Sequence record: SRR31156797_315
Length of the DNA stretch: 64,000 nucleotides
Reading direction: 5' to 3' (one strand)
Shown here: positions 1 through 56,782 of the stretch, piece after piece
Layout: each line of letters starts with the position of its first letter
Numbering within the stretch: the stretch's first letter is position 1
Made by a program: the position numbers and the translations under genes
The notes under the pieces: model-generated
What the model was told of the DNA's origin: nothing
Database searches by the model: none
The model's input: only the letters and a program-made list of their open reading frames with translations

Positions 1-1480
1 CATCGGTTGCAAGCGACCAGTCCTGGAAAGTTCCAACAATAAATACTCCTTCCGGTGATACTTCTTCATTACTCATATCCACCTGGAATGTTACGTCAAC
101 AGTTGGTGGTGGAACACAAGGATCGCATGAGCCGAAGCAAACCAGGCCGAGAGTTGTTGCCACACCCGGAACCATTAATTCACGGTAACCATTGGTATTT
201 GCACAGGCAAGCGGGACATCCTCAGTCTCTGTCAGGCCATTGACAAAAGCATATTCATGCACATCGTTTTCGATGAGCGTAATGGTTGTCGACCAGATGC
301 CTTCGCCCTGATCCGTTAATGGATTGATTTGAGGTGTGAAATCATTGAATGTACCCATCAAATGCACACCATCCTCAGATACCGTTTGTTCGCTCATATC
401 CACCTGGAAAGTTACATCTACCTCCTGTGGGGCCGGGCAGGGGCCGCACAATCCAAAGCAAACCAAATCCAGCTCGGTATTTACATCCGGTACATTGAAA
501 TATCTGTTACCACTATTATTACAATCTTCAGGCAGGATCTCAGCATCTTCCCATGTTATACCGTTCACGAATTTGTATTCCTGGTAGGTCCCTGAAGGGA
601 AAATACCGGTATAGGAATAAATGCCACCTCCTTCGTTGGTCATCAATGTTGCACCAGGATCCCAGCCCTGGAAGGCACCACCAATATGTACACCATCAGG
701 TGATACTTGCTGTTGAGACATATCTACTTTAAAGGTGATCTCCACATCAACGGGAGGTGGTCCGCAGGGATCGCAGTTGCCAAAGCAAACAGCATCCAGG
801 GTAGTGGAAACACCCGGAATCCAAAAATACCTGTTGAATCCGAAGGCACAATCCGGTGGAACAGTTTCGTCGTCTCCCCATGCATTACCGTTTATAAACT
901 TGTATTCATGATACTCTCCTTCCCCGAGGGAAAGCGTTACTTCATAAATGTCATTCTCCTTTAGGGTTAAGGGTGTTCCAGCTGGATCCCAGCCCTGAAA
1001 TGAGCCGGCAATATGAATCCCATTCGGGGAAACGGTTTCATTTGACATATCTACCTGGAAGGTGATATCTACCTGGGGGGGATTACAAATGGTGCAGCTT
1101 CCAAAACAAACAACGTCCAGTGTGATGTCTTCGTCAGGAACAGTTAAATTGCGGTTGCCACCCTGTGCACAACCATTCGGTACGGATTCATCCATGCCCC
1201 AGTCATTACCGTTAATATATTTGAACTCAAGTTCTGATCCGGGAGCAAAATCCTGTGTATACGTGTAAACAAATCCAAATGGAGGCTGGATCATCTCGGT
1301 GGAACCGGGATTCCAACCCTGGAAATTACCCGCAATATGTACACCCAACGGGCTGATTTCACCAACCTCCGACATATTAACGCGGAAGGTAACCTGCACA
1401 GTTTGTGCATTGGCTGAACTGAGCATGATCATGGCGGTAATGGCCAGGAAGCTCAATAGTTTTGTAAATAATGTTCTCAT
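1..1480 (-). CDS. Secreted protein with >=5 tandem Cys-rich CBM20-like (starch-binding-like) modules; 3' end runs off the window
   Basis: Absent from the ORF track because it has no stop in the window. Hand translation from ATG at 1480 gives MRTLFTKLLSFLAITAMIMLSSANAQ-TVQVTFRVNMSEVGEISPLGVHIAGNFQGWNPGSTEM...EFKYING...VCFGSCTIC. The same frame reads ...VDVTFQVDMSNEEVSPEGVFIVGTFQDW at the window edge. Paralogous to 1511..4129. Confidence 0.88.
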   Translation of the reverse strand, partial: MRTLFTKLLSFLAITAMIMLSSANAQTVQVTFRVNMSEVGEISPLGVHIAGNFQGWNPGSTEMIQPPFGFVYTYTQDFAPGSELEFKYINGNDWGMDESVPNGCAQGGNRNLTVPDEDITLDVVCFGSCTICNPPQVDITFQVDMSNETVSPNGIHIAGSFQGWDPAGTPLTLKENDIYEVTLSLGEGEYHEYKFINGNAWGDDETVPPDCAFGFNRYFWIPGVSTTLDAVCFGNCDPCGPPPVDVEITFKVDMSQQQVSPDGVHIGGAFQGWDPGATLMTNEGGGIYSYTGIFPSGTYQEYKFVNGITWEDAEILPEDCNNSGNRYFNVPDVNTELDLVCFGLCGPCPAPQEVDVTFQVDMSEQTVSEDGVHLMGTFNDFTPQINPLTDQGEGIWSTTITLIENDVHEYAFVNGLTETEDVPLACANTNGYRELMVPGVATTLGLVCFGSCDPCVPPPTVDVTFQVDMSNEEVSPEGVFIVGTFQDWSLATD

Positions 1481-1510
1481 AATACGTAGGTTTTAATTTG
1501 AGTTTATTGT

Positions 1511-4129
1511 TTATTCAATGATTAACTTTTGATATTTTGCCCCATATTCATTTTCGATAAGTAGGTAATACAAGCCGCTTTTCAATCCATTAATTTCAGT
1601 GTATGAGGAATTTAGGGGTTGATCCATAACCAGTTTCCCTGTGATGGTGAAAATGGTGATATGATCGGCATTGTTAAAAAACACCACCTGGTTTGCCGGG
1701 TTTGGATAAAAATCAAATGCATCAGCGTTTTCAGCATTCATTTCACGGTAACCTACCAAATCACATGATACACAGTAAGCAAAACATACGGCCGGAAGTG
1801 TGTCGTTTTCTTCGGGAACAGTAAAATATCTGTTGTTATTGTTGGTGCAGTCTTCAGGAATCACTTCATCTTCTCCCCATATATCACCATTCACAAATTT
1901 ATATTCGATATAATCACCAGATGACAATGTGGTTGTATAAGCATATAATGTTCCGTCGATCCACTGCATTTCGGTTGCTCCGGGATCCCATCCCTGGAAA
2001 CTTCCGGCAATATGAACACCGTCCGGTGAAACATCTTCAAATTCCATATCCACTAAAAAGGTGATGTCCACATCTGTTGGTGGCGGGCCACATGGGTCGC
2101 AGCTACCAAAGCAAACGGCTGTCATGGTGGTGTCTTCATCCGGAACGGTGAAATACCTGTTTCCGTTTTGTGAACAATCCGGAGGCACGATCTCCGCTTC
2201 ATCAAAAGTATCGCCATTGATGTATTTAAATTCATGTTCGCTGCCTTCCTCCAGCATCCGGGTAACCTCGTAAATGTTATCGCCGGTGAGCGACATCACT
2301 GTTGCCGATGGATTCCAACCCTGGAAAGTTCCGGCCAGGTGAACACCACTTGCTGAAACATCCTCATAGGTCATATCAACCCTGAAAGTAACCGCATGGT
2401 CTGGCATTGGCGGCAGGCAGGGTTCGCAACTACCAAAGCATACCGCCGTCATGGCAGTGTCGTTGGCCGGCATGGTAAAATACCTGTTAAAACCACCCAC
2501 ACCATCAGGCACACCACATGCTTCGGGTACATCTTCCTCAAAATCAAATGAATTACCATTGATGAATTTAAATTCCTGATCAGTTCCAGCTTCAATCATC
2601 ATTGATATTTCGTAAATATCATCGGTGGTCAGGTTCATCTCTGTTGATGCAGGATCCCAACCCTGGAATGAGCCTGCAAGGTGCACGCCATCACCGGAAA
2701 CGGTTTCGTTACTCATATCTACCCTGAAGGTAATTTCATATTCGGGTTGTGGAGGCATGCAGGGCTCACAACTTCCAAAACACAGGGCCTGCATGGTAGT
2801 ATCTTCAACAGGCACTTCAAAAAACCTGTTGTAGCCACCCTGCCCGTCAGGAACTCCACACTCCTCGGGAACACTTTCAACAAAGTCAAAAATATTACCA
2901 TTAACAAATTTATACTCGTGGTTAAATCCGGATTGCAGGGTAAGGGTAACTTCATAAATGTCGTCGCCAATAGCCGTCATTGGTGTTGCTGCCGGATCCC
3001 AGCCCTGGAATGTTCCGGTTATATGAATGCCGTCCGGAGAAATATCTTCTTCGCTCATATCCACTTTAAAGGTTACATCCACATCCACAGGCGGCGGGCC
3101 GCATGGGCCACACTCTCCATAACAAACTGCATCGATTACGGTATCATTCCAGGGAACCGTCAGGTAGCGGTTGTTGTTGATTCCACAATCCACAGGTACA
3201 TTTTCTGATTCTTCCCATGTGGTTCCGTTTACAAATTTGTATTCCTGGTATGTTCCGGAAGGAATTACGGCTGTATAGCTATAGATGTTGTCGCTAACCA
3301 GGGTCATCTCGGTTGCCCCCGGATCCCATCCCTGAAAACCACCACCGATATGTACGCCATCAGGTGAAGCTGTTTGTTCCGACATGTCAACCTGGAAAGT
3401 TACATTGATGTCGACAGGTGGCGGGCCGCATGGGTAGCAGCTCCCGAAGCATACAGCTTCAAGCGTGGTGGGAACTTCCGGAACATTGATATAACGATTC
3501 CAGCCAACGGAGCATTCAGGTGGTACGGTTTCATCATCACCCCAGGCATTTCCGTTAACAAACTTATATTCGAAATAACCGCCGATTTCAAGCAAAACGG
3601 TAATCGCATAAACGTCATCACCTATGGGTTCCATTTCAGTGGCACCCGGGTCCCAGCCCTGGAAGCTTCCGGCAACATGGATACCATTAGGTGAAATGGT
3701 TTCATTTGACATATCCACCTGGAAAGTTATCTCAACCTCTCCGGGGTTGCAAATGGTACAACTGCCAAAACATACAGCTTCAAGTTCGAGATTGGTGGCC
3801 GGAACGGTAAGAAACCTGTTTCCGTTTTGGGCACATCCTGCAGGAACAAGTTCGTCCAGGCCCCATGCGTTGCCATTTACATATTTGTATTCAATTTCCT
3901 CACCTTCAGTTAAGTCGGCTGTATAAACATAGATGTTGTCCTGTGTGAGTGTCATTTCAGTTGCACCAGGGTCCCAGCCCTGGAAACTGCCGGCAATATG
4001 AACACCTTCCGGGGCAACTGTTTCTTCGGACATATCCACCTGAAAGGTGACCTCAACAGCTTGTACAGTTCCGAAAAAGACAAGAAAAATGAGTGCAGAA
4101 ATTAGTGATTTAAGTACCTGTTTTTTCAT
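1511..4129 (-). CDS. T9SS-secreted protein with 7 tandem Cys-rich CBM20-like modules and no recognisable catalytic domain
   Basis: Signal peptide; seven ~110-aa repeats (V/I)TFxVDM..GVHIAGSFQGWDP..EM..EYKFVNG..VPxxC..NR..VCFGSCxxC; C-terminal FYPNPA...GLYYL...KLIIE typical of a T9SS type A sorting domain. Confidence 0.85.
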   Translation of the reverse strand: MKKQVLKSLISALIFLVFFGTVQAVEVTFQVDMSEETVAPEGVHIAGSFQGWDPGATEMTLTQDNIYVYTADLTEGEEIEYKYVNGNAWGLDELVPAGCAQNGNRFLTVPATNLELEAVCFGSCTICNPGEVEITFQVDMSNETISPNGIHVAGSFQGWDPGATEMEPIGDDVYAITVLLEIGGYFEYKFVNGNAWGDDETVPPECSVGWNRYINVPEVPTTLEAVCFGSCYPCGPPPVDINVTFQVDMSEQTASPDGVHIGGGFQGWDPGATEMTLVSDNIYSYTAVIPSGTYQEYKFVNGTTWEESENVPVDCGINNNRYLTVPWNDTVIDAVCYGECGPCGPPPVDVDVTFKVDMSEEDISPDGIHITGTFQGWDPAATPMTAIGDDIYEVTLTLQSGFNHEYKFVNGNIFDFVESVPEECGVPDGQGGYNRFFEVPVEDTTMQALCFGSCEPCMPPQPEYEITFRVDMSNETVSGDGVHLAGSFQGWDPASTEMNLTTDDIYEISMMIEAGTDQEFKFINGNSFDFEEDVPEACGVPDGVGGFNRYFTMPANDTAMTAVCFGSCEPCLPPMPDHAVTFRVDMTYEDVSASGVHLAGTFQGWNPSATVMSLTGDNIYEVTRMLEEGSEHEFKYINGDTFDEAEIVPPDCSQNGNRYFTVPDEDTTMTAVCFGSCDPCGPPPTDVDITFLVDMEFEDVSPDGVHIAGSFQGWDPGATEMQWIDGTLYAYTTTLSSGDYIEYKFVNGDIWGEDEVIPEDCTNNNNRYFTVPEENDTLPAVCFAYCVSCDLVGYREMNAENADAFDFYPNPANQVVFFNNADHITIFTITGKLVMDQPLNSSYTEINGLKSGLYYLLIENEYGAKYQKLIIE

Positions 4130-4184
4130 GATTTATGTGATTAAATTTTATCTTCTTACCAGGAAAATATCCCCTCAAAGTTAA

Positions 4185-7100
4185 TTATTGTTTCACAAAT
4201 TTTTTAACAATTGACATATCATCCTGATAAATATAAACATAGTAAACCCCATGTTGATATGATTTTACATCCAGCTGGTTATTATTTAACTGATTATCAT
4301 AAATTAAACTACCATGAGCAGAATAAACTTTAACCCTGGAATTTACGTCAATACCTTGAAAATATAAAATGTTTTTTGAAGGATTTGGATAAAAATGGAG
4401 TGCAACCCTTGCCTGGTCATCTAAAATGGTGGAGTTGAAACTCAATGATTTAACGTGTGTCATACCATTTGATTTCAGGCTTAAATCGTTGAATTTGCTA
4501 TCAACAATCAGTTCCGCAGGCACGATTGTATTAGCTCTTTTTATTGAAACCCGAATTTCGTCACCAGCATTAAAACCTTCCTGTTCTTTGGTGGTTTGAT
4601 CGTTCATAAAAATTGGGATTGCCACCGTTTTTCCGGGCTGTTGGATTGTGATCTTTGCCAGTTCAAATCCCGCATCTGATAAGAGTAAGATTTTATCTCC
4701 AGGGTTCAGACTGGCTGATGCCTGGCCCTCAAAAGCAATGATATGAGATTTGTTGGAAAGTTTCCCGTTTGGGTACCTGACACTAAAATCATCAGGTTGA
4801 TATTGATGCATTAGGGCTTGTTTTTCACAGTCCGGATATGTAAATGAAACAGCATCGGCAAAACCAGCCGTATAACACTTGCCTGGCTCCAGCATGAAAA
4901 GGTTTTGGAAAACACCCGGCCAGTAAAGTCTTACGCCAGCTACTTCTTTTACGATTACCACATCATCTGTCATTCCTGCAAAAAGGTCTTCAATAGAAGC
5001 ATTACACGAACTCAGCACAGGGATGAGGTACCATCCGGGACTGTCGTAAGTGAGTGATTTGGATGCTGGTGAATTACCTGTGATGTTGATTTGCTGGTCG
5101 CCTGCTACCTTTATTTGATAACCGTTCTGAAAATCCCAGCCGCCATTTATATCAACAGTGTTGATTCCTTCGGATGGCCAGTACAAGGTACTGTAGTTTT
5201 GGAAAACAACAAGATTGTTTGCCTGAACCATGTCAGCAAAAATGTCTTCAACCATGGGGTTTTGCGGCGTCAGCCAGGTGGAGATTCCACTCCAGCCATC
5301 AGGTATCTCAATGGTTTGGGATAAAAGGCTTTCGATGGTGAGGGTTGCTGTTTCGCTGGTTGCTGAGCCACATGCATTTTCGATGATGCAATAATAATCA
5401 CCCGCATCATCAGGCGCAACATTTTCAAGAACAAGTTGTGCATTATTTGAAGCCGGAATTTCGCCCGCTGGTCCATACCAGGTGTAGTCCACAGGTTGGG
5501 AGCCATCCACCCCAACTTCAAAGATTACCTGTGAACCCTGAGGCGCTACCTGGCTTTCCGGTTGGGAAACGATGGATGGTGAGTTAAGGATGGTGGTGAT
5601 CATCATATCCGAAACTGCTTCCGGGCAAGGGGTTATCGGGAAAGCCGTTAATGTCAGTTCGGCGTAGCCTGCCAAAACATCACCAGGTCCGGGTGTATAT
5701 GTCGTTATGGTGCCTGAACTGTTGGCAAACACGCCATCGCCTGTGGTACTCCATAATACAGTTGAGAAGCTGTCAGCCACACCTGATAACAAAACAGGGT
5801 CGTTATCACAGGATTCCTGATCGATGCCTGCGCTTACTGTGGGTGTTTCGTTCACGGTAATGTAGTCCGTTTGTGTGAGTGTGTTGCTTTCCCTGCCATC
5901 CGAAACAGTGAGGCTCACATCGTAGGATCCTGCGGAAGTGTAGGTTACAGATGGATTTTGTTCCGTTGAAGTTGCCGGATCACCTCCTTCGAAAGTCCAT
6001 GCCCATTGGCTAACACTTCCGGTTGATTGATCTGCAAAATTAATGGTTCCGGCAAGACAGACCTGGGTGTTATCGGCAGTGAAATTGGCCAGAAGCATCC
6101 CATTATTGGTTACCTCCACCTGCCAGGTTACAGTTGCACCGTCATGTTCCGGAATGCCGTCATTTGCACTGGCAACCAATTCGTTTATGCCAACCATGTC
6201 TGGCAATCCAACAAATGAATAAAGATCCGTATTGCCCACAGTTTCATCATTGAGTTTCCAGGTATAATCCAGGGCATCACCTTCAGGATCAGTTGCTGTG
6301 ATCGAGAAATCCACAGATTCACCAACCTCCAAAGATTGTGAAAGTCCCGACGGTGTCCATTCAGTGATTTCAGGTTCTTGGTTAGGTAATATAAAAATGG
6401 TGTTGGGTTCGATTCCTGTAACCGGCATGCCATCATTTATGTAAGGCTGGTAAAGTGCGTAGAAATGGGTGAGGGTGGGGGTATTACCGGCGGCATTCTG
6501 TGTTGGGAAAACATCGGTTACAACCTGGGAATCTTCTTCAGAAACATGCACTGCCAGGGCGATTCCTTCAGGGTTGCCAAGTGAGGTCCATGGGATCGAG
6601 ATTTCTGTAAACCCGTTTTCGGCCCAGCCTTCATAAGAATTACAGCCATTGCTTCCGGGATAACTCCAGCTACCACCTGCATGTTCGTTCAATTGTAACG
6701 ATCCGCCACCGCCTTCGATGGCAACCTGGTATTCGGCCTGGTACGTCGAAGTGTAATTTACGCGTCCCCATGATCCTGATGGTGCGCCGCTACCGGCAGT
6801 CTGATCCGTGTCGATATCCACAAACAGATCTCCATCGTTATTCAAATCCATATCTTCGAATCCGATGTAGAGATTATTGCTGTCCCAGGTCATGAACAAT
6901 GTATAGTTATCCGTGGCCATTAATTCAGTATCAGGATCAAAATCATTGGTTCCGTCAATAATGATGGTATGCGGTGTTGCGCCGGATGGCACTACAAAGT
7001 TTGCCGTATTGTTTCCAGAAATTGCATTTCCAACGAGGTCTTCAATATTATTTACAACAATCTGCCCTTCATCCCCTGGTACCCAATTTTCCTGAATCGT

Positions 7101-9692
7101 AAGATGTACTTTACGCCAGTCGGCCTGACGTACTGCTGAAATGGGTGTGTAAGTATTACTGAAATTTTGGAGTGCATAATTTGAAATATTCTGGGCGGTA
7201 TTAATCTCCACAGCTTCATCGAAAATGATTTCTACGGTGTTGTTGTCGATCTGGAAGGCGATCTCATTTAGCCTTGGTGGCAAAATATCCATACTCTGCG
7301 ATGCAAGGGTATTCAATTCAGGTACAGTTGTTCCTGTTGGAACGGAAGTGTACCCGGCCCACAGCCTGGTAAAAAACCGGTCATACCCTTTGATTTCATC
7401 ACCCAAAACAAGTGTCCCTTCAAACAGGGTGTTGTGTTGTGCACCGCCATCACCTAAAACGAGCGCCACGGTAGCCCCGGATGAGCTATTTCGCTGGCCA
7501 CAATATGAGCCGTAATCGCCCCAGATTCGTTGCACATTGGCCTTTCCTGACCACAGCACGTCCAGCAATCCCGGTGAGAACCCTGATTTAACATATCCAT
7601 CACTGCCAAAGAAATCATAAATCACATCCAGGTAACTGTTGCCTGCAACCAGAGAAACGGTTTTTTTAACGCCCCATTGGGTGAATTCCGCAGTAACGGT
7701 ATCGCCGGAAGTTTGCAACAGGTTCATTTCATAAACGGCATTTTGCTGGTTGGGATAAACATCCGAAAGAGCAGCCACGTGGTTGTTGGAGCCATCGTTG
7801 TAATCACCGTCGGTTTCGGCCCAGTAAGCCATGTCAGAACCAACTACAGAATGTGCATTTCCAAGTTCGTCTTTATAAAACAACCAGTTTATTTTTCCGC
7901 CAATGCTTTCGAAAACCGCGAAAACATCCTGGTTATGCATCACAACTTCATTCACACCATCGTGGTCGATGTCGTCAAAATAGGCGGTATTTTCAGCCTG
8001 ATATTGACCATCGGCCCATCGTGAAGCATGTGCATAAACGTTTGCATTTTTGATGTGTGAGGAATACCGGTGCTCCCATCCCGCAACCGACCCGCCATCA
8101 TGCCAGCCGGTTTCGTGCAGGTTTATCATCAGGATATACCAGGCAAGCTGGGAAAGTGCATTATCAGGCGCAGTTAGTAGGTTGTTGTGTGCATCATCCC
8201 AGATGTATCCGTATGTCCATTTTGGTTCATGAAAATCTGAATGTGATTCCGTGGCTGCCCACTGGGTGTACCACGAATTGTTGCTGCCACCGTAGCCATC
8301 AGGGCCTCCCAGCAATCCATAAGTTCCTGTTGATACCTCGGCACCGGTTCCGTTGAAGTTTGGATTTTGCATGGCATCCACTGTTTTCCAGACATTTACG
8401 CCGGGAAAGTTATCGTGGCACCACCACAACACACTTTCATAGTTGTCCAGGAAAAAGGTGCCGTCGTGTTCGTTCATTTCAGCAGCCACCTCCCAGTCGG
8501 TACCATACACACATATATTATAGGTGCCCATACCGGCAATCTGATTCTTTGCACCGTTGGCATCATAATGCATGTTTCCCACAAATGAGTTGTTAATGGG
8601 GATTACCCGCAGGCTGATACCTGAACCATTGTTCATCCAGTGAATTTTGCGGTTGTCGTAGCCGTTGAGATGCGGGCTGTCGTCCAGCACAATTCCCCAA
8701 ACACCATGATGCGCCCAGTTATCCCCCAGCCAGTCGATTACGCCGGCATCCGGGTAGTTGCCCGGTGCCAGCCATACACGTTCAGGAACCCAGGCGGTAC
8801 GGGGTTGATAGTTGTACTTATAATTAACCATGTCGCACTCAATATCCACCGACCAGTCATTCATATTGTTATGCACAAAGGGCATAATGTGTTGGCCAAG
8901 TGCCGAAGTCATCATCTCGATAGTGCCATTTCCTGCCAGTGTTGTCAGCCAGTCGTTGAACTCAGGGTTATGCCAGGATGCAGCGGGCATCAAGGTTCCC
9001 GACATGTGAAAATTTCCGGGAACGCCCGTAGCTTCATGCACCTGTAAAACCTCGTCGAAGCCACTCCCGTCGAGGCCGCTTTGCCCCCCGGGGCTTCCAT
9101 AAAACACTTCTGTGTAAGTTATACCCTGGTTGCCATGATGCACAAAGGCACAGTTGCCCTCGGCATCGCTGGTGCGACCGTCAGAAAGGAAATAATCCAC
9201 CACTTTTCCGCCTATTAAAACAGATATGCTGAATTCAATTTGTTCCCTTCCGATGGAGGAAGCCAGAGGAATCTCAGCTTCAAACAGGTTAAATGATGGC
9301 GTTCTCAGGCTGTAATATTCTCTGGAATTGTTTTGAATGGCTACAAGGTTCAGCACCTGGTGAAAAACTGCCTGCCTGTTTTGCTGGTTTATTAGCCTGA
9401 TATCGCATTGGATATCAGAATCTATAAAATTATCTTCAATTACAATGTTGTTTTTGCGGGCAACCATATTATCAAAAGTAACCCGGATCAACACCTTGTT
9501 ACCAACGGTGCGGGCATATACTGAGCTTATATCGCCGGTTTTCGCCAGGCAATCACCTATCTCATCAAATCCAAGAAAATCTGATTTTTCCCAGGAGTTT
9601 AAATCCCCATTAATTTGTTGTGCCGAAAGTATGGCTGAAAATGCAAGCAACAATATCAGTACTGCATTTTTTTTGGTAATTACTTTTTTCAT
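4185..9692 (-). CDS. Large T9SS-secreted GH57-like alpha-glucan-active enzyme with DOMON/CBM9-like, Ig-like and PKD domains
   Basis: GH57-type motifs FVHHGNQ, WVPERVW (nucleophile Glu) and YGTDWE (acid/base Asp); PKD (FADQSTGSVSQWAWTFEGG..NPSVTY..GSYDVSLTVS); Ig (DAGDYYCIIENACG); CTD (FYPNPSKN...GVYYV...KKFVKQ). Confidence 0.75.
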   Translation of the reverse strand: MKKVITKKNAVLILLLAFSAILSAQQINGDLNSWEKSDFLGFDEIGDCLAKTGDISSVYARTVGNKVLIRVTFDNMVARKNNIVIEDNFIDSDIQCDIRLINQQNRQAVFHQVLNLVAIQNNSREYYSLRTPSFNLFEAEIPLASSIGREQIEFSISVLIGGKVVDYFLSDGRTSDAEGNCAFVHHGNQGITYTEVFYGSPGGQSGLDGSGFDEVLQVHEATGVPGNFHMSGTLMPAASWHNPEFNDWLTTLAGNGTIEMMTSALGQHIMPFVHNNMNDWSVDIECDMVNYKYNYQPRTAWVPERVWLAPGNYPDAGVIDWLGDNWAHHGVWGIVLDDSPHLNGYDNRKIHWMNNGSGISLRVIPINNSFVGNMHYDANGAKNQIAGMGTYNICVYGTDWEVAAEMNEHDGTFFLDNYESVLWWCHDNFPGVNVWKTVDAMQNPNFNGTGAEVSTGTYGLLGGPDGYGGSNNSWYTQWAATESHSDFHEPKWTYGYIWDDAHNNLLTAPDNALSQLAWYILMINLHETGWHDGGSVAGWEHRYSSHIKNANVYAHASRWADGQYQAENTAYFDDIDHDGVNEVVMHNQDVFAVFESIGGKINWLFYKDELGNAHSVVGSDMAYWAETDGDYNDGSNNHVAALSDVYPNQQNAVYEMNLLQTSGDTVTAEFTQWGVKKTVSLVAGNSYLDVIYDFFGSDGYVKSGFSPGLLDVLWSGKANVQRIWGDYGSYCGQRNSSSGATVALVLGDGGAQHNTLFEGTLVLGDEIKGYDRFFTRLWAGYTSVPTGTTVPELNTLASQSMDILPPRLNEIAFQIDNNTVEIIFDEAVEINTAQNISNYALQNFSNTYTPISAVRQADWRKVHLTIQENWVPGDEGQIVVNNIEDLVGNAISGNNTANFVVPSGATPHTIIIDGTNDFDPDTELMATDNYTLFMTWDSNNLYIGFEDMDLNNDGDLFVDIDTDQTAGSGAPSGSWGRVNYTSTYQAEYQVAIEGGGGSLQLNEHAGGSWSYPGSNGCNSYEGWAENGFTEISIPWTSLGNPEGIALAVHVSEEDSQVVTDVFPTQNAAGNTPTLTHFYALYQPYINDGMPVTGIEPNTIFILPNQEPEITEWTPSGLSQSLEVGESVDFSITATDPEGDALDYTWKLNDETVGNTDLYSFVGLPDMVGINELVASANDGIPEHDGATVTWQVEVTNNGMLLANFTADNTQVCLAGTINFADQSTGSVSQWAWTFEGGDPATSTEQNPSVTYTSAGSYDVSLTVSDGRESNTLTQTDYITVNETPTVSAGIDQESCDNDPVLLSGVADSFSTVLWSTTGDGVFANSSGTITTYTPGPGDVLAGYAELTLTAFPITPCPEAVSDMMITTILNSPSIVSQPESQVAPQGSQVIFEVGVDGSQPVDYTWYGPAGEIPASNNAQLVLENVAPDDAGDYYCIIENACGSATSETATLTIESLLSQTIEIPDGWSGISTWLTPQNPMVEDIFADMVQANNLVVFQNYSTLYWPSEGINTVDINGGWDFQNGYQIKVAGDQQINITGNSPASKSLTYDSPGWYLIPVLSSCNASIEDLFAGMTDDVVIVKEVAGVRLYWPGVFQNLFMLEPGKCYTAGFADAVSFTYPDCEKQALMHQYQPDDFSVRYPNGKLSNKSHIIAFEGQASASLNPGDKILLLSDAGFELAKITIQQPGKTVAIPIFMNDQTTKEQEGFNAGDEIRVSIKRANTIVPAELIVDSKFNDLSLKSNGMTHVKSLSFNSTILDDQARVALHFYPNPSKNILYFQGIDVNSRVKVYSAHGSLIYDNQLNNNQLDVKSYQHGVYYVYIYQDDMSIVKKFVKQ

Positions 9693-9917: not shown

Positions 9918-12110
9918 ATGAAAAAGATTTTTACGATTTGTATTGTAGCATTATGTATGCTTATGCCATTATCATCCTACAGCCAGTTTATAACTGCTCA
10001 GGATGATGCAGGGAATTATTCTGATTTCTCTAATGGGCTTAATGAAGGAAATGGATTTGGTACCTGGGTCATCTCTGCGCAAGGTGCAGGAGGTTCTTAT
10101 ATTGGTGCAACAGGACTTTCATCCAATTCATTTGGAATTTATGCCGGTGGTGGCGGAGGGAATAGTGCTGTGGCATCAAGAACATTTGATTTTGCATTGG
10201 AAATTGGAACTACATTTAGCTTTGATTTGGGTTATACGTCAATTGCATCTGGCGGTGAAATTGGCATCTCATTTTTTTCTGGTGAAAATTGGAGAATGAC
10301 TTTGAAATTTATCGGTGGGAATAGCTATTGGAAACTCAATGATGGCGGTTCTGATTTTGAGACTACAATACCATGGGATGGGACTAATCCCCCTCTTGAA
10401 ATTAGTTTAACAAGAGGCACTGGAAATAATTACACACTCGTATTATCTCAAAATGGAATAACATATAATGCCAATGATTACACAGCATCGTCCGGTGAGT
10501 TTTCTATCAGCAAATTTGATATTTATTCAATTGCACAGGGTAGCGGAGAGAATGTTGGGTTCGATACCTTCATTATAGAAGCAAGTGACCCTGCCAAGGT
10601 TCCGGCCACTGCCGATGTTACAATAAATGGAAATGTAACACTTGGCGCTTCACAAGCGCTTACGGTGAATGATTTGAGCATACCTGCAGGAAATTCTTTC
10701 ACGCTGGAATCAACAGCTTCTGGCACCGGATCGTTGATAATCAATGGTGCCTGTACTGATGAAATCAGTGTTCAGAGATTCCTCTCCGGCAACTGGGACT
10801 GGCATTTTCTTTCCTCACCTGTTGTTGATCAGCCTATAGTTGGTGCAGATAACTTTATTGATTTTCCCGGTGGGATTGGTGACCCATCCGTAGATTTTTA
10901 TAAACACGATGAAACCGAAATGAGCGGCCAGCCCTGGATCAATATTAAAAATGAGAATGGTACGCTTAACACAAGCTTTGGCAGCCCGTCAAGCGATCCG
11001 CTGTTTGAAGAAGGCTGGGGCTACCTGGTAGCTTATGCCGGAACAAAAGGTGATGTAACAAAAACATTTACCGGTGTACCCTTTCTCGATCAGGCATTTA
11101 TGATTTTAACTTACACAGATGGTGGTGGTGAAGGATGGAACCTGGTAGGAAATCCTTATACAAGTGCAGTAAGTTGGGATCAGGTTCGCTCAGATATGGG
11201 GTTAACGAATCTCTTTACAGAGACATATTATGTTTATAATGAAGCGATGAATGGTGGAGGTGGTGGATTCGAATGGTACACAAACCTGACCAGTCATAGC
11301 ACAAACATAGAATTTGGCAAAATACCGGCAATGCAGGCATTTTTTGTTCGCTCAAAGAATGTGGGTTTCCCGACTATGTTTTTGTCAAAAAATTCCAGGT
11401 TACATGATGAACAGGAATATTTTAAGCAGGATGATGGGGAAAGAAGTGACAGGCTTCAACTGAGTATCGCAGGTGAGAATTATAACAGCGATGCATATAT
11501 TTCGATAAGCGATGATGCTACAACCGGTGTGGATGCCACAGATGCTTTTTTGCTTTTTAGCCTTAATAGTTCTGTGCCTCACGTTTATAGTCTTGCAGGA
11601 GCAGATAAACTTGTTTCAAACAATGTGCCTTTCCCCGTTGAGGATTATAGTTTGCAAATTGGGATGAAGACCGGAATGCCGGGAAGTTATACCATTACAG
11701 CTGTGGGCATAGAAAACTTCAACAGCAGCATTCTGCCCATCCTCGAAGATACCCAAACCGGTGCCGAAATCGACCTGCGGTTTGAAGGCAGCTACACCTT
11801 TGATGTGTCTGAGTCCGGAATTAACAATTCCAGGTTTATCCTGCACTTAAAATCAGCTGTTGGTGTTACTGAAAATAGTGTAGTATCAGAAATTGCAGTA
11901 TCTGTTATTGGCAACCAGTTAAAAGTTTATAACCTTGAGCCCGGACAAAACACTGTTAAAATTATGGACACCATGGGCAGGGGTTTGGTGAGCGGAAAAT
12001 TAGATCACGACAACACCATTTCACTTCCGGCAAGTATTTCAGCAGGAACATACATTTTACAGGTTTCAAATGGTGACTGGCAATGGGTTGAGAAGTTTGT
12101 TGTGGATTGA
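9918..12110 (+). CDS. T9SS type A sorting domain-containing surface protein, function unknown
   Basis: Signal peptide; WHFLSSPV and GWNLVGNPY motifs common in Bacteroidota secreted proteins; C-terminal GTYILQVSNG..VEKFVVD. Confidence 0.75.
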   Translation: MKKIFTICIVALCMLMPLSSYSQFITAQDDAGNYSDFSNGLNEGNGFGTWVISAQGAGGSYIGATGLSSNSFGIYAGGGGGNSAVASRTFDFALEIGTTFSFDLGYTSIASGGEIGISFFSGENWRMTLKFIGGNSYWKLNDGGSDFETTIPWDGTNPPLEISLTRGTGNNYTLVLSQNGITYNANDYTASSGEFSISKFDIYSIAQGSGENVGFDTFIIEASDPAKVPATADVTINGNVTLGASQALTVNDLSIPAGNSFTLESTASGTGSLIINGACTDEISVQRFLSGNWDWHFLSSPVVDQPIVGADNFIDFPGGIGDPSVDFYKHDETEMSGQPWINIKNENGTLNTSFGSPSSDPLFEEGWGYLVAYAGTKGDVTKTFTGVPFLDQAFMILTYTDGGGEGWNLVGNPYTSAVSWDQVRSDMGLTNLFTETYYVYNEAMNGGGGGFEWYTNLTSHSTNIEFGKIPAMQAFFVRSKNVGFPTMFLSKNSRLHDEQEYFKQDDGERSDRLQLSIAGENYNSDAYISISDDATTGVDATDAFLLFSLNSSVPHVYSLAGADKLVSNNVPFPVEDYSLQIGMKTGMPGSYTITAVGIENFNSSILPILEDTQTGAEIDLRFEGSYTFDVSESGINNSRFILHLKSAVGVTENSVVSEIAVSVIGNQLKVYNLEPGQNTVKIMDTMGRGLVSGKLDHDNTISLPASISAGTYILQVSNGDWQWVEKFVVD

Positions 12111-12203: not shown

Positions 12204-14372
12204 ATGAAAAGAATTTTATTTTTTGCATTTGTTTTTTTGATGGGGAGTCATTCATTCTCCCAATCTAGAGCAGATTTTTACTGGAGTGGCGGAAGCCCTA
12301 CCTCTGATAATATTGATCAAGGAGACAATTGGTATACATCAGGGAATCCTGCTTCAGGGGATAATTTATATTTTGATAACACAGTAAATCGTCATTGGGC
12401 CTATAGTAATTATGGCGGCGGTTCTTATTTTGGAAATATTATTACATATGACGGTGCAGGAGGTATTAGATGGTATGGAGATAACACGTATGCATTGAAA
12501 TTCGAAAATTTTTCTGATGCTAATTTATTGGAATTAAGCCCTAGCAGTGCAACAGTTGGTAGTCGAGAAATAGGAAATCGGATAGATAATGATCTTGAGA
12601 TAAACCCTGTAGGATCTGGGGGTATATTAGTTTCGTGTGATAGAATAAGTATTGATAACTTAAATGGGGCAAGAACTTTAAAAATCTATGGAGATAACCT
12701 ACTGACCATTGACGGCTACATTTATGAGAAAAATGGAACTGGTGCACAATTGCAATTACTTGGAAGTGCAACTGTAATCATAAAGAGTAATTCGACTTAT
12801 ACTGGAGCAACAACTCTTGCATCTGGAATATTAGAATTGCAAGGGGGTATTGCGAGCAGTGATGTGATCGTTCAATCTGGAGCAACTCTAAAAATAAATG
12901 GTGATGACATTACCATCGCATCATTAACCGTAAATTCCGGAGGTATCGTTAATGTTGAACCTGGAAAGTCATTGACTGTATCAGGAAATTATTCGAATAG
13001 TGGCACAGTTACTCTGCATTCTGATGCTTCTGGTACAGCTTCACTTATTGTTAATGGTTCAGTTACCGGCGATGTGACTGTCGAAAAATACCTGGCTACT
13101 GAAACGGAATGGAATTATATGGCAGAATCGGTAAATGCTGGTACAAGTTTCGATGATGCCTTTGGTGCGAACGATCCTACGGAATTGTATGAATGGGATG
13201 AATCTTTTACAAATGGAACCATTGGTTGGTGGTTGGATTTGACTGATGAGCTGACCAGCTCTGATTTTGAACCTGCCAAAGGATATGCCATGTCATATTA
13301 TGTGGCACCTAAAGCAAATACCTACACCCTTACCGGTGCTCCATATACAAGCGACCAATCCATTACTTTAACAAAAACTGCTAATAGCACTGGTGAAGGC
13401 TGGAACCTGGTTGGTAATCCTTTTACTGCTACCCTGGCAGGAAACAGCGCGGCACAAACAACCAATAATTTTCTGGATGAAAATGCAGGTGTACTGGATG
13501 ATACCTACACAGCCATGTATTTCTGGAATGAAGGTAATGGTGATTATGATGCTGTGGATAATGCTTCAGGTGCGACATACATTGATGTAGGAAGGGCATT
13601 TATGGTTTTGACAGATGCAAACAACTCAACATTGAACTTCAATGAGTCCATCCGCAAACATGCAGATAACATAGTAATGAAAGGTGCGCTTTCCGATCCA
13701 TTCTTTGAACTTCAGGTAACTGATAATGATAAGCTGATCAACGAAATAGAATTTGTCTTTATTGACGGCATGACCAAAGGTCTTGATCCATCCTATGATG
13801 CTGGGAAATTTCAAGGGAACCCGGATATTGCATTCTACAGTTTCCTTACTGAAACCAATGACACCAAATTCGATATTCAGGCTCTTCCACCGCTCACTGA
13901 AGGGTATTCAGTTCCTATTGGACTTAGAGTAGCCAATGCTGGAAATTATACCTTTAAGGTAAAAACCCTGATCAATTTCGATCCCGGAACACCAATAACC
14001 CTTGAAGATCGCCTGACTGGTGAACTTACAGATCTTACCGTTATTCCGGAGTACAACTTCACAGTATCTGAAGCAGGTACATTTGATGACCGGTTTGTAC
14101 TTCACTTCAAATCATCTGTTGGTATTCCCGAAGGTGTTGCTGAAAGTAACCCCACCATCGCCATCCAAAACCAACAACTGAGCATCTCTGATTTACAACC
14201 CGGAAATGTTGATCTCAGGATTATTGATATCATGGGCCGGGTGGTTGCAACCGAATCGCTGAATGCTCAAGATGGGCAGGTCAGTTTACCTATCCATCTA
14301 AATTCAGGCATTTATATCTTGGAAATAAATACAGATTATCATACCTTTGCGCACAAGATCAGTGTAAAATAA
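12204..14372 (+). CDS. T9SS type A surface protein with an autotransporter-associated beta-strand repeat; C-terminal half paralogous to 9918..12110
   Basis: NSTYTGATTLASGILELQG repeat motif; shared SGTASLIVNG, GEGWNLVGNPF and RFVLHFKS blocks; CTD GIYILEI..AHKISVK. Confidence 0.75.
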   Translation: MKRILFFAFVFLMGSHSFSQSRADFYWSGGSPTSDNIDQGDNWYTSGNPASGDNLYFDNTVNRHWAYSNYGGGSYFGNIITYDGAGGIRWYGDNTYALKFENFSDANLLELSPSSATVGSREIGNRIDNDLEINPVGSGGILVSCDRISIDNLNGARTLKIYGDNLLTIDGYIYEKNGTGAQLQLLGSATVIIKSNSTYTGATTLASGILELQGGIASSDVIVQSGATLKINGDDITIASLTVNSGGIVNVEPGKSLTVSGNYSNSGTVTLHSDASGTASLIVNGSVTGDVTVEKYLATETEWNYMAESVNAGTSFDDAFGANDPTELYEWDESFTNGTIGWWLDLTDELTSSDFEPAKGYAMSYYVAPKANTYTLTGAPYTSDQSITLTKTANSTGEGWNLVGNPFTATLAGNSAAQTTNNFLDENAGVLDDTYTAMYFWNEGNGDYDAVDNASGATYIDVGRAFMVLTDANNSTLNFNESIRKHADNIVMKGALSDPFFELQVTDNDKLINEIEFVFIDGMTKGLDPSYDAGKFQGNPDIAFYSFLTETNDTKFDIQALPPLTEGYSVPIGLRVANAGNYTFKVKTLINFDPGTPITLEDRLTGELTDLTVIPEYNFTVSEAGTFDDRFVLHFKSSVGIPEGVAESNPTIAIQNQQLSISDLQPGNVDLRIIDIMGRVVATESLNAQDGQVSLPIHLNSGIYILEINTDYHTFAHKISVK

Positions 14373-15784: not shown

Positions 15785-15942
15785 CTTTAGGGCAACCGAA
15801 GGTTCGGAGTGATTTTAAAAAATGTGGCCAATCCCGGTGTTAAAACTCAATTCCTGAAAATATTTGTATACTATTGCCGTTACTCAAACCTGATTATTTA
15901 ACTAAACGATGCTGATCGGACAAACCATTACTATTCATTCGT

Positions 15943-18258
15943 ATGAAAAACCGTTACTCTACCCTCCTGATATGGGCAGCCCTGCTACTGTTAACCTCAT
16001 TTTCACAAGTCAATGCACAGGATGCTACAATCCGCGGATTTATCTATGAAAAGGAAACTGGTGAACCAGTGATTTTCACCAACGTTTACCTGTATCAAAC
16101 TTCATATGGTGCGGCCTCAGATGTAAATGGCTATTTTGCGATCACAAAAATCCCACCCGGATCATACACACTTATGGTTACCTATTTGGGTTACGATACC
16201 CTCAGAATGGAGGTCACTTTATCCCCGGGGCAAATACAATCCGAAAACCTTTATCTTACAAAATCTTCTGTAATGCTGGGAACAGTTAGTGTATCCGCCG
16301 AAAGGCAGGCAGCTAAAACGGAGACAAGAACATCAATCGTAAAAGTCACTCCGCTTGAGATCAAACAAATACCCACTGTTGGTGGGCAGGCTGACATTGC
16401 ACAGTATCTGCAGGTATTGCCCGGTGTTATTTTTACTGGTGACCAGGGTGGACAACTCTATATTCGTGGAGGTTCTCCAATACAGAACAAGGTCCTGCTC
16501 GATGGAATGGTCATCTACAATCCATTTCACTCCATTGGTTTGTTTTCAGTTTTCGAAACGGATATTATCAGAAACGCCGACATCTATACCGGTGGATTTA
16601 ATGCTGATCATGGTGGGCGGATTTCTTCAGTTATGGATATTACCACACGTGATGGGAATAAAAAACGGCTGGCAGGTAAGATTGGTGCTTCAACCTTTGG
16701 TGCCAACGTTCTCCTTGAAGGACCGCTTAAAAAGCAACCTGAAGATGGTGGCGGCAGCTCATCCTTTATCTTTTCCGCCAAGAACTCATATCTGGAACAA
16801 TCATCAAAGATATTCTATGACTATGTTGATGAAGATGGCTTGCCATTTAATTTCCTCGACCTGTATGGTAAAGTATCGATCAATGGTTCCAATGGCAGTA
16901 AGGTGAACCTCTTCGGATTCAATTATACCGATAGGGTGAATTATCAGGATATTTCTGATTACAACTGGGATGCTTTTGGCGGTGGTGCCAATTTTGTGAT
17001 CATTCCCGGCAATTCTCCTGTTCTCATGGAAGGCGTAATGGCTTATTCATCGTACAAAATGCAACTCAACGAAGAGAATCAGGCCCCCCGTACAAGTTCG
17101 ATCAACGGCTTTAACGCTGCATTGAATTTTAACTATTTCATGGGTAAGGATGAATTGAAATGGGGACTGGAGCTCAATGGGTTTAAAACTGATTTTGAAT
17201 TTTTCAACGAAACCGGTTCGCGTATCGAACAGGAACAGAATACAACTGAGATTGCCGTTTATGGGAAATATAAACTCACAGTTGGTAAGTTTTTAATTGA
17301 GCCCGGATTGCGTTTGCAATGGTATGCTTCTTTGTCTGAAATCTCGCTGGAGCCACGATTTTCCATGAAATATAACGCATCAGACATTACCCGCTTCAAA
17401 CTTGCTGCAGGGCTCTATTCACAAAACCTCATCAGTGCACGCTCCGATCGCGATGTTGTAAACCTGTTTTATGGTTTCCTGTCAGGCCCGGAAAACCTTC
17501 CAGAGGAGTTCGATGGAGAGGAAGTTACAAGCAAGCTGCAAAAGTCACAGCACATCGTTGTTGGTGTGGAGCAGGATTTTAGTCGCCATCTCACTGTGAA
17601 CCTTGAAGGATATTACAAGTATTTCCCGCAGTTAACCAACCTTAACCGGTATAAGATTTACAACGAGGATGATGCCCCTTCGGGAACTCCGGATATTGAG
17701 AAAAAGGATTTCCTGATCGAAAAAGGCCGTGCCTACGGTATTGATCTATCTTTGAAATACAACCGTGACGGCATTTATTTGTGGGGAGCATATTCGTTTG
17801 CGTTTGTCGAAAAGTATGATGGCGAGATCTGGTACTATCCCCATTACGACCGTCGCCACAACCTGAATATGTTGGCTTCATATACATTCGGCGACCTGAA
17901 CCAGTGGGAGGTGAGTATGCGCTGGAATTTTGGCACCGGATTTCCATTTACCCAAACGCTCGGATATTATGAGAAGCTTCTTTTCCCTGGAGGACTAAAT
18001 TCCGATTTCATAACCGAAAATGGCCAAATGGGTATCCAGTATGCTGATCTAAACGAAGGCAGACTACCCACATATCACAGGTTGGACTTTAATTTCAAAA
18101 GGATATTCTTTCTTTCTGAAAACACCAAACTGCAGGCTGATTTCAGTGTAACCAACCTCTACGACCGTGAAAATGTGTTTTACGTAAACAGAATTTCAGG
18201 TGATATCGTACGGCAGTTACCTATCATGCCCAGCCTTGGCCTCACACTTACATTCTAA
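15943..18258 (+). CDS. TonB-dependent receptor (non-SusC type)
   Basis: N-terminal carboxypeptidase-regulatory-like domain; plug motifs LQVLPGV, LYIRGGSPIQNKVLLDG, GGRISSVMDI; C-terminal barrel ending LGLTLTF. Confidence 0.88.
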   Translation: MKNRYSTLLIWAALLLLTSFSQVNAQDATIRGFIYEKETGEPVIFTNVYLYQTSYGAASDVNGYFAITKIPPGSYTLMVTYLGYDTLRMEVTLSPGQIQSENLYLTKSSVMLGTVSVSAERQAAKTETRTSIVKVTPLEIKQIPTVGGQADIAQYLQVLPGVIFTGDQGGQLYIRGGSPIQNKVLLDGMVIYNPFHSIGLFSVFETDIIRNADIYTGGFNADHGGRISSVMDITTRDGNKKRLAGKIGASTFGANVLLEGPLKKQPEDGGGSSSFIFSAKNSYLEQSSKIFYDYVDEDGLPFNFLDLYGKVSINGSNGSKVNLFGFNYTDRVNYQDISDYNWDAFGGGANFVIIPGNSPVLMEGVMAYSSYKMQLNEENQAPRTSSINGFNAALNFNYFMGKDELKWGLELNGFKTDFEFFNETGSRIEQEQNTTEIAVYGKYKLTVGKFLIEPGLRLQWYASLSEISLEPRFSMKYNASDITRFKLAAGLYSQNLISARSDRDVVNLFYGFLSGPENLPEEFDGEEVTSKLQKSQHIVVGVEQDFSRHLTVNLEGYYKYFPQLTNLNRYKIYNEDDAPSGTPDIEKKDFLIEKGRAYGIDLSLKYNRDGIYLWGAYSFAFVEKYDGEIWYYPHYDRRHNLNMLASYTFGDLNQWEVSMRWNFGTGFPFTQTLGYYEKLLFPGGLNSDFITENGQMGIQYADLNEGRLPTYHRLDFNFKRIFFLSENTKLQADFSVTNLYDRENVFYVNRISGDIVRQLPIMPSLGLTLTF

Positions 18259-18307
18259 TCTGTAAGACCTTACGCCGATTCACAAACCTTTCACGTACTA
18301 AAAAACA

Positions 18308-18355
18308 GAAAAAAAGCCCTCCATCGGGGGTTGGTGATGGAAGGCTTTTGTTTTT
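18308..18355. terminator. Bidirectional intrinsic terminator
   Basis: A-run, AAGCCCTCCATC-loop-GATGGAAGGCTT, T-run. Confidence 0.75.
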
Positions 18356-18582
18356 AGGACTTGCAGTTGAGGAATTTTCATTAACCAAACCTATATTTAG
18401 TAAATAACCTCAACCAGTTTTATTGCACCGAAACTGTTTTTGGGATAAGGGGGCCCATTTAAGGGGGACGAAATAAATGGGTAAGATGAAAATGGATAAT
18501 TCTGCCTGATAATTCTAGATGTTAACAAACAGCTCGGGATGCAATATTTTAAAGAACGAATGACTTGCTTGTAACAAAATCT
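18308..18582 (-). ncRNA. Candidate ~270-nt structured small RNA
   Basis: Minus-strand promoter-like TTTG-N20-TATCTTAG (18618-18587), internal stems, terminator with U-run on the minus strand, no long ORF. Confidence 0.4.
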
Positions 18583-18915
18583 GAGGCTAAGATATACCCA
18601 ATGAAATTAAAAAGCAAACAAACATGTCTTCCTGATATATATGTTGATTATCATGATGTGTGCGTTTTTTTGGATGAGCGTTGGGGTTTTTTGATTAAAC
18701 GTTTGGGAAAGTTAAATAAGCGTGTCTGCAAAAAAAATTCAAAAATTATCTAATTTTTACGTGTTCTAAATAAAAACTTTTCGATTCTACAGTTTTTCAA
18801 AACCGATTCTGGTTTTAATCTTCAATAAAATTTAGCCGTCTGCTTTTAAAAATGACATCAATTGCTTATTTTTACGGATAATAAGTTTTTAAATAAATTT
18901 GAAAGTGAGGCTCAT

Positions 18916-47771: not shown

Positions 47772-47773
47772 AA

Positions 47774-47893: not shown

Positions 47894-47912
47894 AACAACA
47901 AATAGCCAAACG

Positions 47913-48803: not shown

Positions 48804-48820
48804 TATAAAAATTAGCATGT

Positions 48821-51949: not shown

Positions 51950-51971
51950 TCATTTTAAAACTAGCATATAT

Positions 51972-56773: not shown

Positions 56774-56782
56774 CTATTGATC

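Follow-up and report, generated by a model that had tools for sequence, protein, structure and literature searches.

Starch and glycogen use by Bacteroidota is explained almost wholly by the starch utilization system (Sus) paradigm, in which lipoproteins of glycoside hydrolase family 13 (GH13) act together with SusC/D. Here, we describe a gene cluster located in the left 9.7 kb of a 64,000-nt stretch of DNA (record SRR31156797_315; the window). Its three genes, termed A, B, and C, are predicted to encode a secreted enzyme with a glycoside hydrolase family 57 (GH57)-type region and two proteins built of tandem carbohydrate-binding modules (CBM) of the CBM20 type. Their sequence features make it likely that they constitute an operon with which a Lentimicrobiaceae-like Bacteroidales bacterium captures and degrades alpha-1,4-glucan (starch or glycogen) outside the cell, without adjacent SusC/D.

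The Sus machinery of Bacteroides thetaiotaomicron (SusC/D and the lipoproteins SusE, SusF, and SusG) resembles this cluster in displaying tandem CBM-like modules and a surface amylase at the outer surface. The window cluster differs in having no SusC/D beside it, an enzyme of GH57 rather than GH13 type, and type I signal peptides plus C-terminal domains (CTDs) of a type IX secretion system (T9SS), with no lipoprotein signals detected by eye. The Ruminococcus bromii amylosome likewise captures starch at the cell surface with enzymes and noncatalytic multi-CBM proteins. Amylosomes assemble via cohesin-dockerin pairs, whereas a Pfam scan of proteins A, B, and C at E ≤ 0.01 gave neither a dockerin nor a cohesin; T9SS CTDs are found on A and B, and dockerin type I appears on the same enzyme family in Cloacimonadota and Neomarinimicrobiota. 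The likeness to an amylosome drawn by a first-pass annotation of the window thus holds as a conceptual analogy but does not extend to cohesins or dockerins in these proteins. The locus is neither an amylosome nor a Sus-type locus.

For the enzyme, the closest described relative is the GH57 4-alpha-glucanotransferase of Thermococcus litoralis (TLGT; 1k1w/1k1x), an archaeal cytoplasmic enzyme that shares with gene A a barrel followed by a C-terminal beta-sandwich and the nucleophile motif WxxERVW. Gene A adds an N-terminal beta-sandwich, about 1000 residues of Ig, PKD, and other domains, a signal peptide, and a T9SS CTD, and its clade comes from mesophilic bacteria of the Fibrobacteres-Chlorobi-Bacteroidetes (FCB) group, with no characterized member. 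Export of carbohydrate-active enzymes (CAZymes) by T9SS through a CTD has precedents in the already known amylases of Flavobacterium johnsoniae (PMC11885536) and the multimodular cellulases of "Ca. Paraporphyromonas polyenzymogenes" (PMC5831590). Both reports, in their accessible parts, concern enzymes and not stand-alone CBM20 arrays. The accessible part of a recent Cloacimonadota survey mentions GH57 only generically (PMC12590816). A literature search, with most subscription journals outside it, retrieved no description of the enzyme clade, of seven-module CBM20 arrays, or of their pairing. The ingredients, i.e., GH57 amylolytic enzymes, CBM20/CBM48, and T9SS-exported CAZymes, are known; the enzyme clade and its pairing with the arrays appear to be new. 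Family members appear in databases as "hypothetical," "PKD repeat protein," "T9SS type A sorting domain-containing protein," or, wrongly, "1,4-alpha-glucan branching enzyme."

Cluster layout and predicted secretion

The three open reading frames (ORFs) run on the minus strand from 9692 to 4185 (1835 aa), 4129 to 1511 (872 aa), and 1480 to 2 (493 aa), the last being open at the left window edge. Their features are as follows.

4185..9692, minus strand: gene A, 1835-aa predicted secreted multidomain protein with a divergent GH57-type region and a type A CTD (ORF listing, Pfam, NCBIfam, homologs)
1511..4129, minus strand: gene B, 872 aa, predicted signal peptide, seven CBM20/CBM48-type modules, and CTD (ORF listing, Pfam, NCBIfam, script, model)
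1748-4057, minus strand: module array of gene B
1517-1708, minus strand: T9SS type A CTD of gene B
2..1480, minus strand: gene C, paralog of B, predicted signal peptide, four full modules, and the start of a fifth (ORF listing, Pfam, script)

These long ORFs have hundreds to thousands of homologs, so chance can be discounted as their source. As the first-pass annotation had it, the genes are co-oriented and separated by gaps of only 55 nt (A/B) and 30 nt (B/C). A terminator scan detected no minus-strand hairpin or other terminator-like site in either gap, which fits a single, presumably cotranscribed operon. A sigma-70 promoter scan was uninformative (33 sites versus 34.2 expected).

Read by eye, the N termini of A, B, and C have a basic start, a hydrophobic core, and an Ala-rich end, and none of them contains a lipobox Cys. 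They look like typical type I (Sec) signal peptides, in agreement with the earlier assignment of signal peptides to all three proteins. The type A CTDs of A and B exceed the cut-off in two libraries (Pfam PF18962 and NCBIfam TIGR04183); in gene B, the Por_Secre_tail match covers residues 808-871. Besides A and B, the window holds five further CTD-bearing ORFs, which suggests that the source genome has a T9SS.

The only SusC/D pair in the window lies far from the cluster, at 48821-53684, inside a GH32 fructan locus. Homologs of this SusC or SusD were found by local phmmer in the ≤10-kb flanks of 0 of the 80 related loci described below, so that the lack of a nearby SusC/D reported at first pass extends to relatives. 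A TonB-dependent receptor at 15943-18258 (771 aa) matches the SusC-type N-terminal family below threshold (48 bits versus 368) and has no SusD beside it.

The GH57-type region of gene A

Pfam matches on gene A comprise Glyco_hydro_57, Big_5, PKD, Ig, and Por_Secre_tail (1768-1833). The clade's enzyme has no CBM20 of its own. Combined with homolog and model evidence, the Pfam matches delimit the following parts.

9183..9578, minus strand: N-terminal beta-sandwich, residues 39-170 (AlphaFold2 blocks with predicted local distance difference test [pLDDT] values of about 88-97; conserved clade-wide)
8013..9158, minus strand: GH57-type barrel, residues about 179-560 (Pfam, profile, Foldseek, conservation)
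7350..7988, minus strand: post-barrel beta-sandwich, residues 569-781, as in the C-terminal domain of the T. litoralis enzyme (model secondary structure, Foldseek 1k1x)
6996..7259, minus strand: Big_5 Ig-like domain, residues 812-899 (Pfam)
5853..6086, minus strand: PKD domain, residues about 1203-1280 (Pfam, PDB sequence matches)
5337..5579, minus strand: Ig domain (I-set type), residues 1372-1452 (Pfam, PDB sequence matches)
4818..5330, minus strand: domain of about 160 aa and of no known family, residues 1455-1625 (blastp, alignments)
4188..4391, minus strand: T9SS type A CTD, residues 1768-1835 (PF18962, 37.4 bits, cut-off 27; TIGR04183, 33.4 bits, cut-off 23)

Neither residues 30-178, with the N-terminal beta-sandwich, nor residues 900-1110 were matched by Pfam at E ≤ 1. 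Residues 1455-1770 drew just two sub-threshold matches (E 0.053 and 0.19).

Since the Pfam call for the catalytic family is thin (Glyco_hydro_57, PF03065, 24.1 bits versus a cut-off of 21.2, residues 220-307), we added a homolog search, an inspection of distant relatives, a profile search, and a fold search. A word-indexed search with residues 30-800 returned 320 proteins at E ≤ 1e-3 among 7998 scored; the 120 homologs listed are 59-89% identical to gene A over nearly the whole catalytic region. An exhaustive search of cluster representatives yielded 332 at the same threshold. Judged by these homologs, the catalytic region is a large and tightly conserved module of about 770 residues, and no stray motif. 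Of 24 distant relatives sampled, 21 exceed the Pfam GH57 cut-off (22-74 bits), and a weak AmyA-gluTrfs_C match in one distant relative (P0182) supports the assignment of the post-barrel beta-sandwich.

A single-sequence PDB search with the 1835-aa protein matched its Ig, PKD, and CTD parts and returned none for the catalytic part. A profile of 22 close homologs gave a single PDB match, the T. litoralis GH57 4-alpha-glucanotransferase 1k1w (E 0.069), with WVPERVW falling on WLTERVW of that enzyme and hence Glu304 on Glu123. According to the accessible part of a published account, Glu123 is the nucleophile and Asp214 the acid/base of the T. litoralis enzyme, and GH119 is a sister family sharing the GH57 catalytic machinery (PMC5347038). 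The fold search used an AlphaFold model of residues 1-800 (pLDDT 69.8; predicted template-modeling score 0.64). Its best Foldseek match was 1k1x (E 5e-18 over 702 aligned columns, at 12-13% identity), with 1k1x/1k1w entries spanning E 5e-18 to 1.5e-15. Further GH57 matches (E 5e-9 to 3e-6) came next, with amylopullulanases and branching enzymes among them; the GH57 entries listed after 1k1x/1k1w were 7e1y, 1ufa, 3p0b, 9jlr, 5wu7, and 3n8t.

The barrel holds the motifs HHGNQG (185-190), WVPERVW (Glu304), and GTDWE (Asp399 and Glu401). In an alignment of 62 sequences from the close clade and distant GH57 relatives, His186, Gln189, Trp301, Pro303, Glu304, Arg305, and Glu401 are invariant, and Asp399 is kept in 61. 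Asp399 follows Glu304 by 95 residues, compared with 91 for the pair Glu123-Asp214 in TLGT (numbering from the accessible part of PMC5347038). From this conservation and the structural model, we conclude that gene A carries a divergent, apparently catalytically intact GH57-type domain composed of an N-terminal beta-sandwich, a barrel, and a TLGT-like C-terminal beta-sandwich, an architecture that resembles the alpha-amylase/4-alpha-glucanotransferase branch of GH57. The initial description of gene A as a GH57-like enzyme with both catalytic motifs and a T9SS CTD thus survives profile, fold, distant-relative, and conservation analyses, with the qualification that the enzyme belongs to a divergent clade.

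Binding-module arrays and their linkage to the enzyme

Gene B contains seven modules of 107-114 residues each, starting at residues 25, 132, 241, 350, 464, 578, and 687 and followed by the CTD, which is the composition first proposed for this 872-aa protein. In gene C, modules start at residues 28, 137, 246, 354, and 461, i.e., four are full and a fifth has begun. This gene is complete in three syntenic loci, two of which have intact copies of 952-955 aa with seven modules. The early view of gene C as a paralog with at least five modules is confirmed, with four modules plus the start of a fifth in the window and seven in complete orthologs. Modules 1-3 of B and C are mutual best pairs (61, 69, and 62% identity), which suggests duplication of the whole array.

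Several lines of evidence place these modules among starch-binding domains. Pfam matches on gene B all exceed the cut-off (X25_BaPul_like, 130.9 bits; AMPK1_CBM, 111.8; CBM_20, 79.8; CBM_48, 74.1). Alignment of the 11 window modules with 87 taken from related loci (thinned from 199 at 65% identity), 98 in all, produced a profile that matches the glucoamylase CBM20 and the AMPK CBM48 in the PDB, with further matches to a "cohesin-containing protein" (7rpy, E 0.0076) and, weakly, to SusF (4fe9, E 0.017). The module model is of high confidence (pLDDT 96.1), and its top Foldseek matches are all starch-binding domains, at template-modeling (TM) scores of 0.5-0.7: the CBM20 of STBD1 (with maltotetraose), GDE5, cyclodextrin glucanotransferases (CGTases), glucoamylases, and beta-amylase. 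The AMPK CBM48 and a CBM25 come lower in the list. The CBM20-like fold suggested at first pass for the modules is thus reproduced by Pfam, model, and fold search.

In the AMPK beta1 module, whose Trp, Lys, Trp, and Asn we take to be the sugar-binding residues, the stretches GSFNNW, YKF, GQW, and NN line up with residues of the modules described here. Among the 98 modules, W28 is kept in 88 (with F in 8 more), K58 in 91, an aromatic residue at position 65 in 88, and N80 in 87. Four Cys per module, each kept in 94-96 of the 98, probably form two disulfides, which would fit an extracellular life of the modules. All four binding residues are present in 10 of the 11 window modules. The exception is module 4 of gene C (101-421, minus strand), where F, A, a gap, and Y replace W, K, the aromatic residue, and N while the four Cys are kept; judging from these replacements, it is probably a nonbinding spacer. 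Multi-CBM20 proteins are numerous (2785 at E ≤ 1e-3 among 7999 scored in the gene B homolog search), and one source calls several of them "1,4-alpha-glucan branching enzyme" despite their lack of a catalytic domain. PF26120 is precomputed on nearly all gene B homologs and is absent from the Pfam scans made here.

Conservation of linkage was assessed in species-representative genomes, where 300 loci encode relatives of the catalytic region; 80 were kept. The closest relatives are metagenome-assembled genomes of Lentimicrobiaceae (up to 88% identity). In 53 of the 80 loci, the enzyme gene is fused with a module-bearing ORF or has one within 3.5 kb, many of the misses being short contigs; among the 39 loci with at least 3 kb to either side, 29 show this linkage. 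The linkage claimed from the window alone is thus conserved in relatives and turns into fusion in other lineages. The arrangements are as follows.

Lentimicrobiaceae-like clade (L002, L004, L005, L007, L046): arrays downstream on the same strand, as in the window
Other Bacteroidales (L014-L033 and others): array divergent, upstream
Cloacimonadota and Neomarinimicrobiota (several loci): array upstream on the same strand
Various lineages (12 loci): array fused to the enzyme

By our own count, 42 of the 120 listed homologs have X25, CBM20, or CBM48 in the same chain. That the modules are fused in some lineages and separate in others is the strongest argument for joint action of the partners.

The neighbors of these relatives, judged by their families, point to alpha-glucan metabolism. 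GH13 genes occur in the ≤10-kb flanks of 36 of the 80 loci (local phmmer). L015 and L029 have, directly downstream, a GH13 gene with Cyc-maltodext_N and Cyc-maltodext_C; L038 has, directly upstream, a GH13 gene with three N-terminal CBM48; and a GH13 with CBM48 modules occurs in L066. A second, different GH57 protein (49.7 bits, FlgD_ig/CTD tail) is encoded 2 kb downstream of the GH57-like gene in L038 (Cloacimonadota; 15806-18967). A LacI regulator gene is found in the flanks of 3 of the 80 loci, in L013 between the enzyme and array genes. In 13 of the 80, an alkaline-phosphatase-family gene comes after the GH57-like and GH13 genes (e.g., L015 16167-17246 and L029 16242-17351); a role in dephosphorylating phosphorylated starch is conceivable. 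Beyond gene C, L046 has an MMPL gene and L004 a convergent gene with a CTD; neither of these syntenic loci shows susCD or GH13 there, and in them no canonical susCD starch polysaccharide utilization locus lies immediately to the left. L046 is filed as a "Clostridia bacterium" but is syntenic with the window (TonB-dependent receptor 81% and DnaJ-like protein 60% identical), and the five-gene cluster with its T9SS CTDs recurs there; its label is probably a binning error.

The C termini of these proteins vary. The end of gene C orthologs is formed by a domain of about 160 residues, which has a counterpart within gene A (residues 1455-1625; blastp and alignments) and no Pfam or NCBIfam match. Its positions in the orthologs are as follows.

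L004, 16125-16598: shared domain at the end of the gene C ortholog
L002, 16617-17087: shared domain at the end of the gene C ortholog
L046, 19966-20439: shared domain at the end of the gene C ortholog

Eight shorter proteins carry the same domain, two of them with GH18 and a CTD, and LTD-domain proteins are also seen. A complex prediction for the two L004 copies of the domain, meant to show whether it joins the enzyme to the array, scored 0.02 (mark 0.34), which speaks neither for nor against binding. In a sister Bacteroidales clade, the enzyme, a four-module CBM protein, and unrelated neighbors share an Asp-rich tail of about 70 residues and have no type A CTD (e.g., L015 14090-14299 and 7801-8010); similar tails occur in about 20 other Bacteroidales loci, and in L029 on a Peptidase_C25-like protein. 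Of four such tails compared with dockerin families, one had a sub-threshold Dockerin_1 match (15.3 bits versus 22.9) and the others had no match, so that identity as a dockerin is not established; the tail may be a different kind of tag for sorting or anchoring at the C terminus. True dockerin type I is present on enzyme relatives of Cloacimonadota and Neomarinimicrobiota (P0091-P0123; e.g., L066 13082-13381, 27.9 bits, cut-off 22.9). Of the 120 listed enzyme homologs, 14 carry a dockerin.

Competing explanations and neighboring genes

The extracellular alpha-glucan capture and breakdown that we favor builds on observations of how the genes are ordered, which domains they encode, which folds these match, and which residues are kept, and on the linkage or fusion seen in relatives. 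Proteins A, B, and C would cross the inner membrane via Sec, and the type A CTDs of A and B would then direct T9SS export followed by surface fixation or release. Both fates, surface attachment and release, are known for type A cargo. The products of B and C, predicted to be noncatalytic and to consist of seven tandem CBM20-type modules each, would act as multivalent arrays that hold insoluble or polymeric glucan, such as starch granules or glycogen, at the cell. Gene A would provide a GH57-type enzyme of the retaining kind that cuts or transfers the alpha-1,4 chains of the array-held glucan; its nucleophile is proposed to be Glu304 and its acid/base Asp399. The interpretation put forward at first pass is thus supported by the sequence comparisons made here.

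Several observations weigh against this explanation. Of the 291 positions in the Pfam GH57 profile, only 65-153 are matched, and at a marginal score. The model of the catalytic region is mediocre (pLDDT 69.8), and its low-confidence segments, 303-325 and 399-408 among them, contain Glu304 and Asp399. GH57 structures are matched at TM-scores of just 0.3-0.47, and GH38 mannosidases score well in the fold search too. The correspondence of Asp399 to Asp214 is suggested by conservation and spacing, not by a residue-by-residue alignment. GH57 also includes an alpha-galactosidase specificity, as stated in the accessible part of PMC12590816, so that the proposed alpha-glucan specificity of gene A rests on context. 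The synteny counts depend on a module hidden Markov model (HMM) built from the window's own modules; this HMM under-detects X25-type modules, which Pfam sees in the enzymes of L038 and L066. With regard to export, the scanned window ORFs include no T9SS machinery gene. Neither complete gene C ortholog examined (L004 and L046) has a T9SS CTD recognized by Pfam or NCBIfam. The location of the gene C product, and with it the presumed route to the surface, is therefore not fixed by a CTD, and the earlier portrayal of the whole set as T9SS cargo stands for A and B but finds no support for C in these orthologs. In addition, neither a GH13 nor a transporter gene lies beside the cluster in the Lentimicrobiaceae-like loci, the window included, which leaves the fate of the products unexplained in this clade.

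The same locus might instead encode mainly a 4-alpha-glucanotransferase, possibly a cyclizing one, whose products would be imported and opened by a GH13 cyclomaltodextrinase-type enzyme. The T. litoralis enzyme, which makes cycloamylose, is the best structural match and the sole PDB sequence match of gene A, and the resemblance includes the C-terminal beta-sandwich. Moreover, CBM20 is a classic partner of CGTases, which fill the fold-match list of the module, and the GH13 genes with Cyc-maltodext_N/Cyc-maltodext_C in the sister Bacteroidales loci L015 and L029, within the 36 of 80 flanks that have GH13 of either type, would fit the second step. However, GH13 enzymes with these end domains do not point to cyclic products, since ordinary periplasmic neopullulanases of Bacteroidota starch systems have the same architecture. 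The window clade has no cyclomaltodextrinase-type GH13 neighbor, and no sequence feature examined separates hydrolase from transferase. We regard a mainly transferring enzyme as unlikely, and the choice of hydrolysis over transfer as provisional.

A glycan other than starch or glycogen, such as an alpha-galactoside, a mannoside, or a bacterial exopolysaccharide, would agree with the alpha-galactosidase specificity within GH57 (accessible part of PMC12590816), with the strong fold neighborhood of GH38 mannosidases, and with the distance of the clade from characterized enzymes (12-13% identity to 1k1x in the fold alignment); the arrays would then be general adhesins for biofilm or prey cells. 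The modules argue otherwise: they keep the alpha-glucan binding residues of CBM20/CBM48, and all Pfam families that they match are starch or glycogen binders. The fused enzyme forms bear X25, CBM20, or CBM48, and the relatives' neighbors are GH13 amylase-family genes, some of them fused to CBM48. We give this possibility little credence. We are even less inclined to see A, B, and C as independent T9SS cargo lying side by side without joint function. Such cargo is common in this genome, as several unrelated CTD genes in the window indicate, and array proteins (2785 of 7999 scored) far outnumber the enzyme family (320 of 7998 scored; 332 representatives), so that most arrays occur without this enzyme. 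Mere coincidence, however, is hard to reconcile with an adjacency that outlasts changes of order and strand in Bacteroidales, Cloacimonadota, and Neomarinimicrobiota and becomes fusion in some loci, nor does it fit the 55- and 30-nt gaps free of terminator-like sites.

Beyond the window, a wider reading has a belief from us that falls just short of an even balance. The catalytic region of about 770 residues, 59-89% identical across Bacteroidales, Cloacimonadota, and Neomarinimicrobiota, may represent an uncharacterized secreted branch of GH57 that, with CBM20-type arrays fused or in trans, makes up an FCB-wide, SusC/D-independent machine for insoluble alpha-glucan whose attachment is swapped by lineage. 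The attachment would be a T9SS type A CTD here, the Asp-rich 70-residue tail in sister Bacteroidales, and dockerin I or FlgD_ig/CTD tails in Cloacimonadota and Neomarinimicrobiota. In a bolder version, the enzyme would be a cyclizing glucanotransferase whose products go to a GH13 cyclomaltodextrinase, making the pair a counterpart, built on GH57, to the CGTase pathway. If the proposal of extracellular alpha-glucan capture and breakdown is true, a secreted GH57-type enzyme with stand-alone seven-module CBM20 proteins would be a second route beside Sus, present in uncultured lineages (Lentimicrobiaceae, Cloacimonadota, and Neomarinimicrobiota) that are dominant in anaerobic digesters and in parts of the ocean, and correct annotation would alter carbon-use predictions for their genomes. 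The clade would represent a mesophilic extracellular GH57 of possible use in raw-starch processing, and the switch from fused to separate CBM would be a natural test of binding modules acting in trans.

Two genes divergent from gene A may also be part of the locus.

9918..12110, plus strand: P0269, 730-aa T9SS cargo without other known family, divergent from gene A (TIGR04183, 32 bits)
12204..14372, plus strand: P0270, 722-aa paralog of P0269 with a type A CTD (Pfam, NCBIfam, blastp)

Nine related loci (L001-L005, L009, L011, L013, and L046; blastp) have homologs of P0269/P0270 at the same place upstream of the enzyme gene. An Atlas search with the 730-aa P0269 retrieved only clusters of T9SS-signal proteins without an assigned function. 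CTD-bearing genes unrelated to A-C lie at 12204-14372, 34069-36810, and 56777-59329. The remainder of the window comprises housekeeping genes and the fructan locus at 46-64 kb. This utilization locus (46413-63699, plus strand) consists of an MFS sugar transporter, a PfkB kinase, SusC/SusD, two DUF4960 proteins, and three GH32. The GH32 at 56777-59329 bears a T9SS CTD, so that Sus-type and T9SS logic are mixed within the fructan locus.

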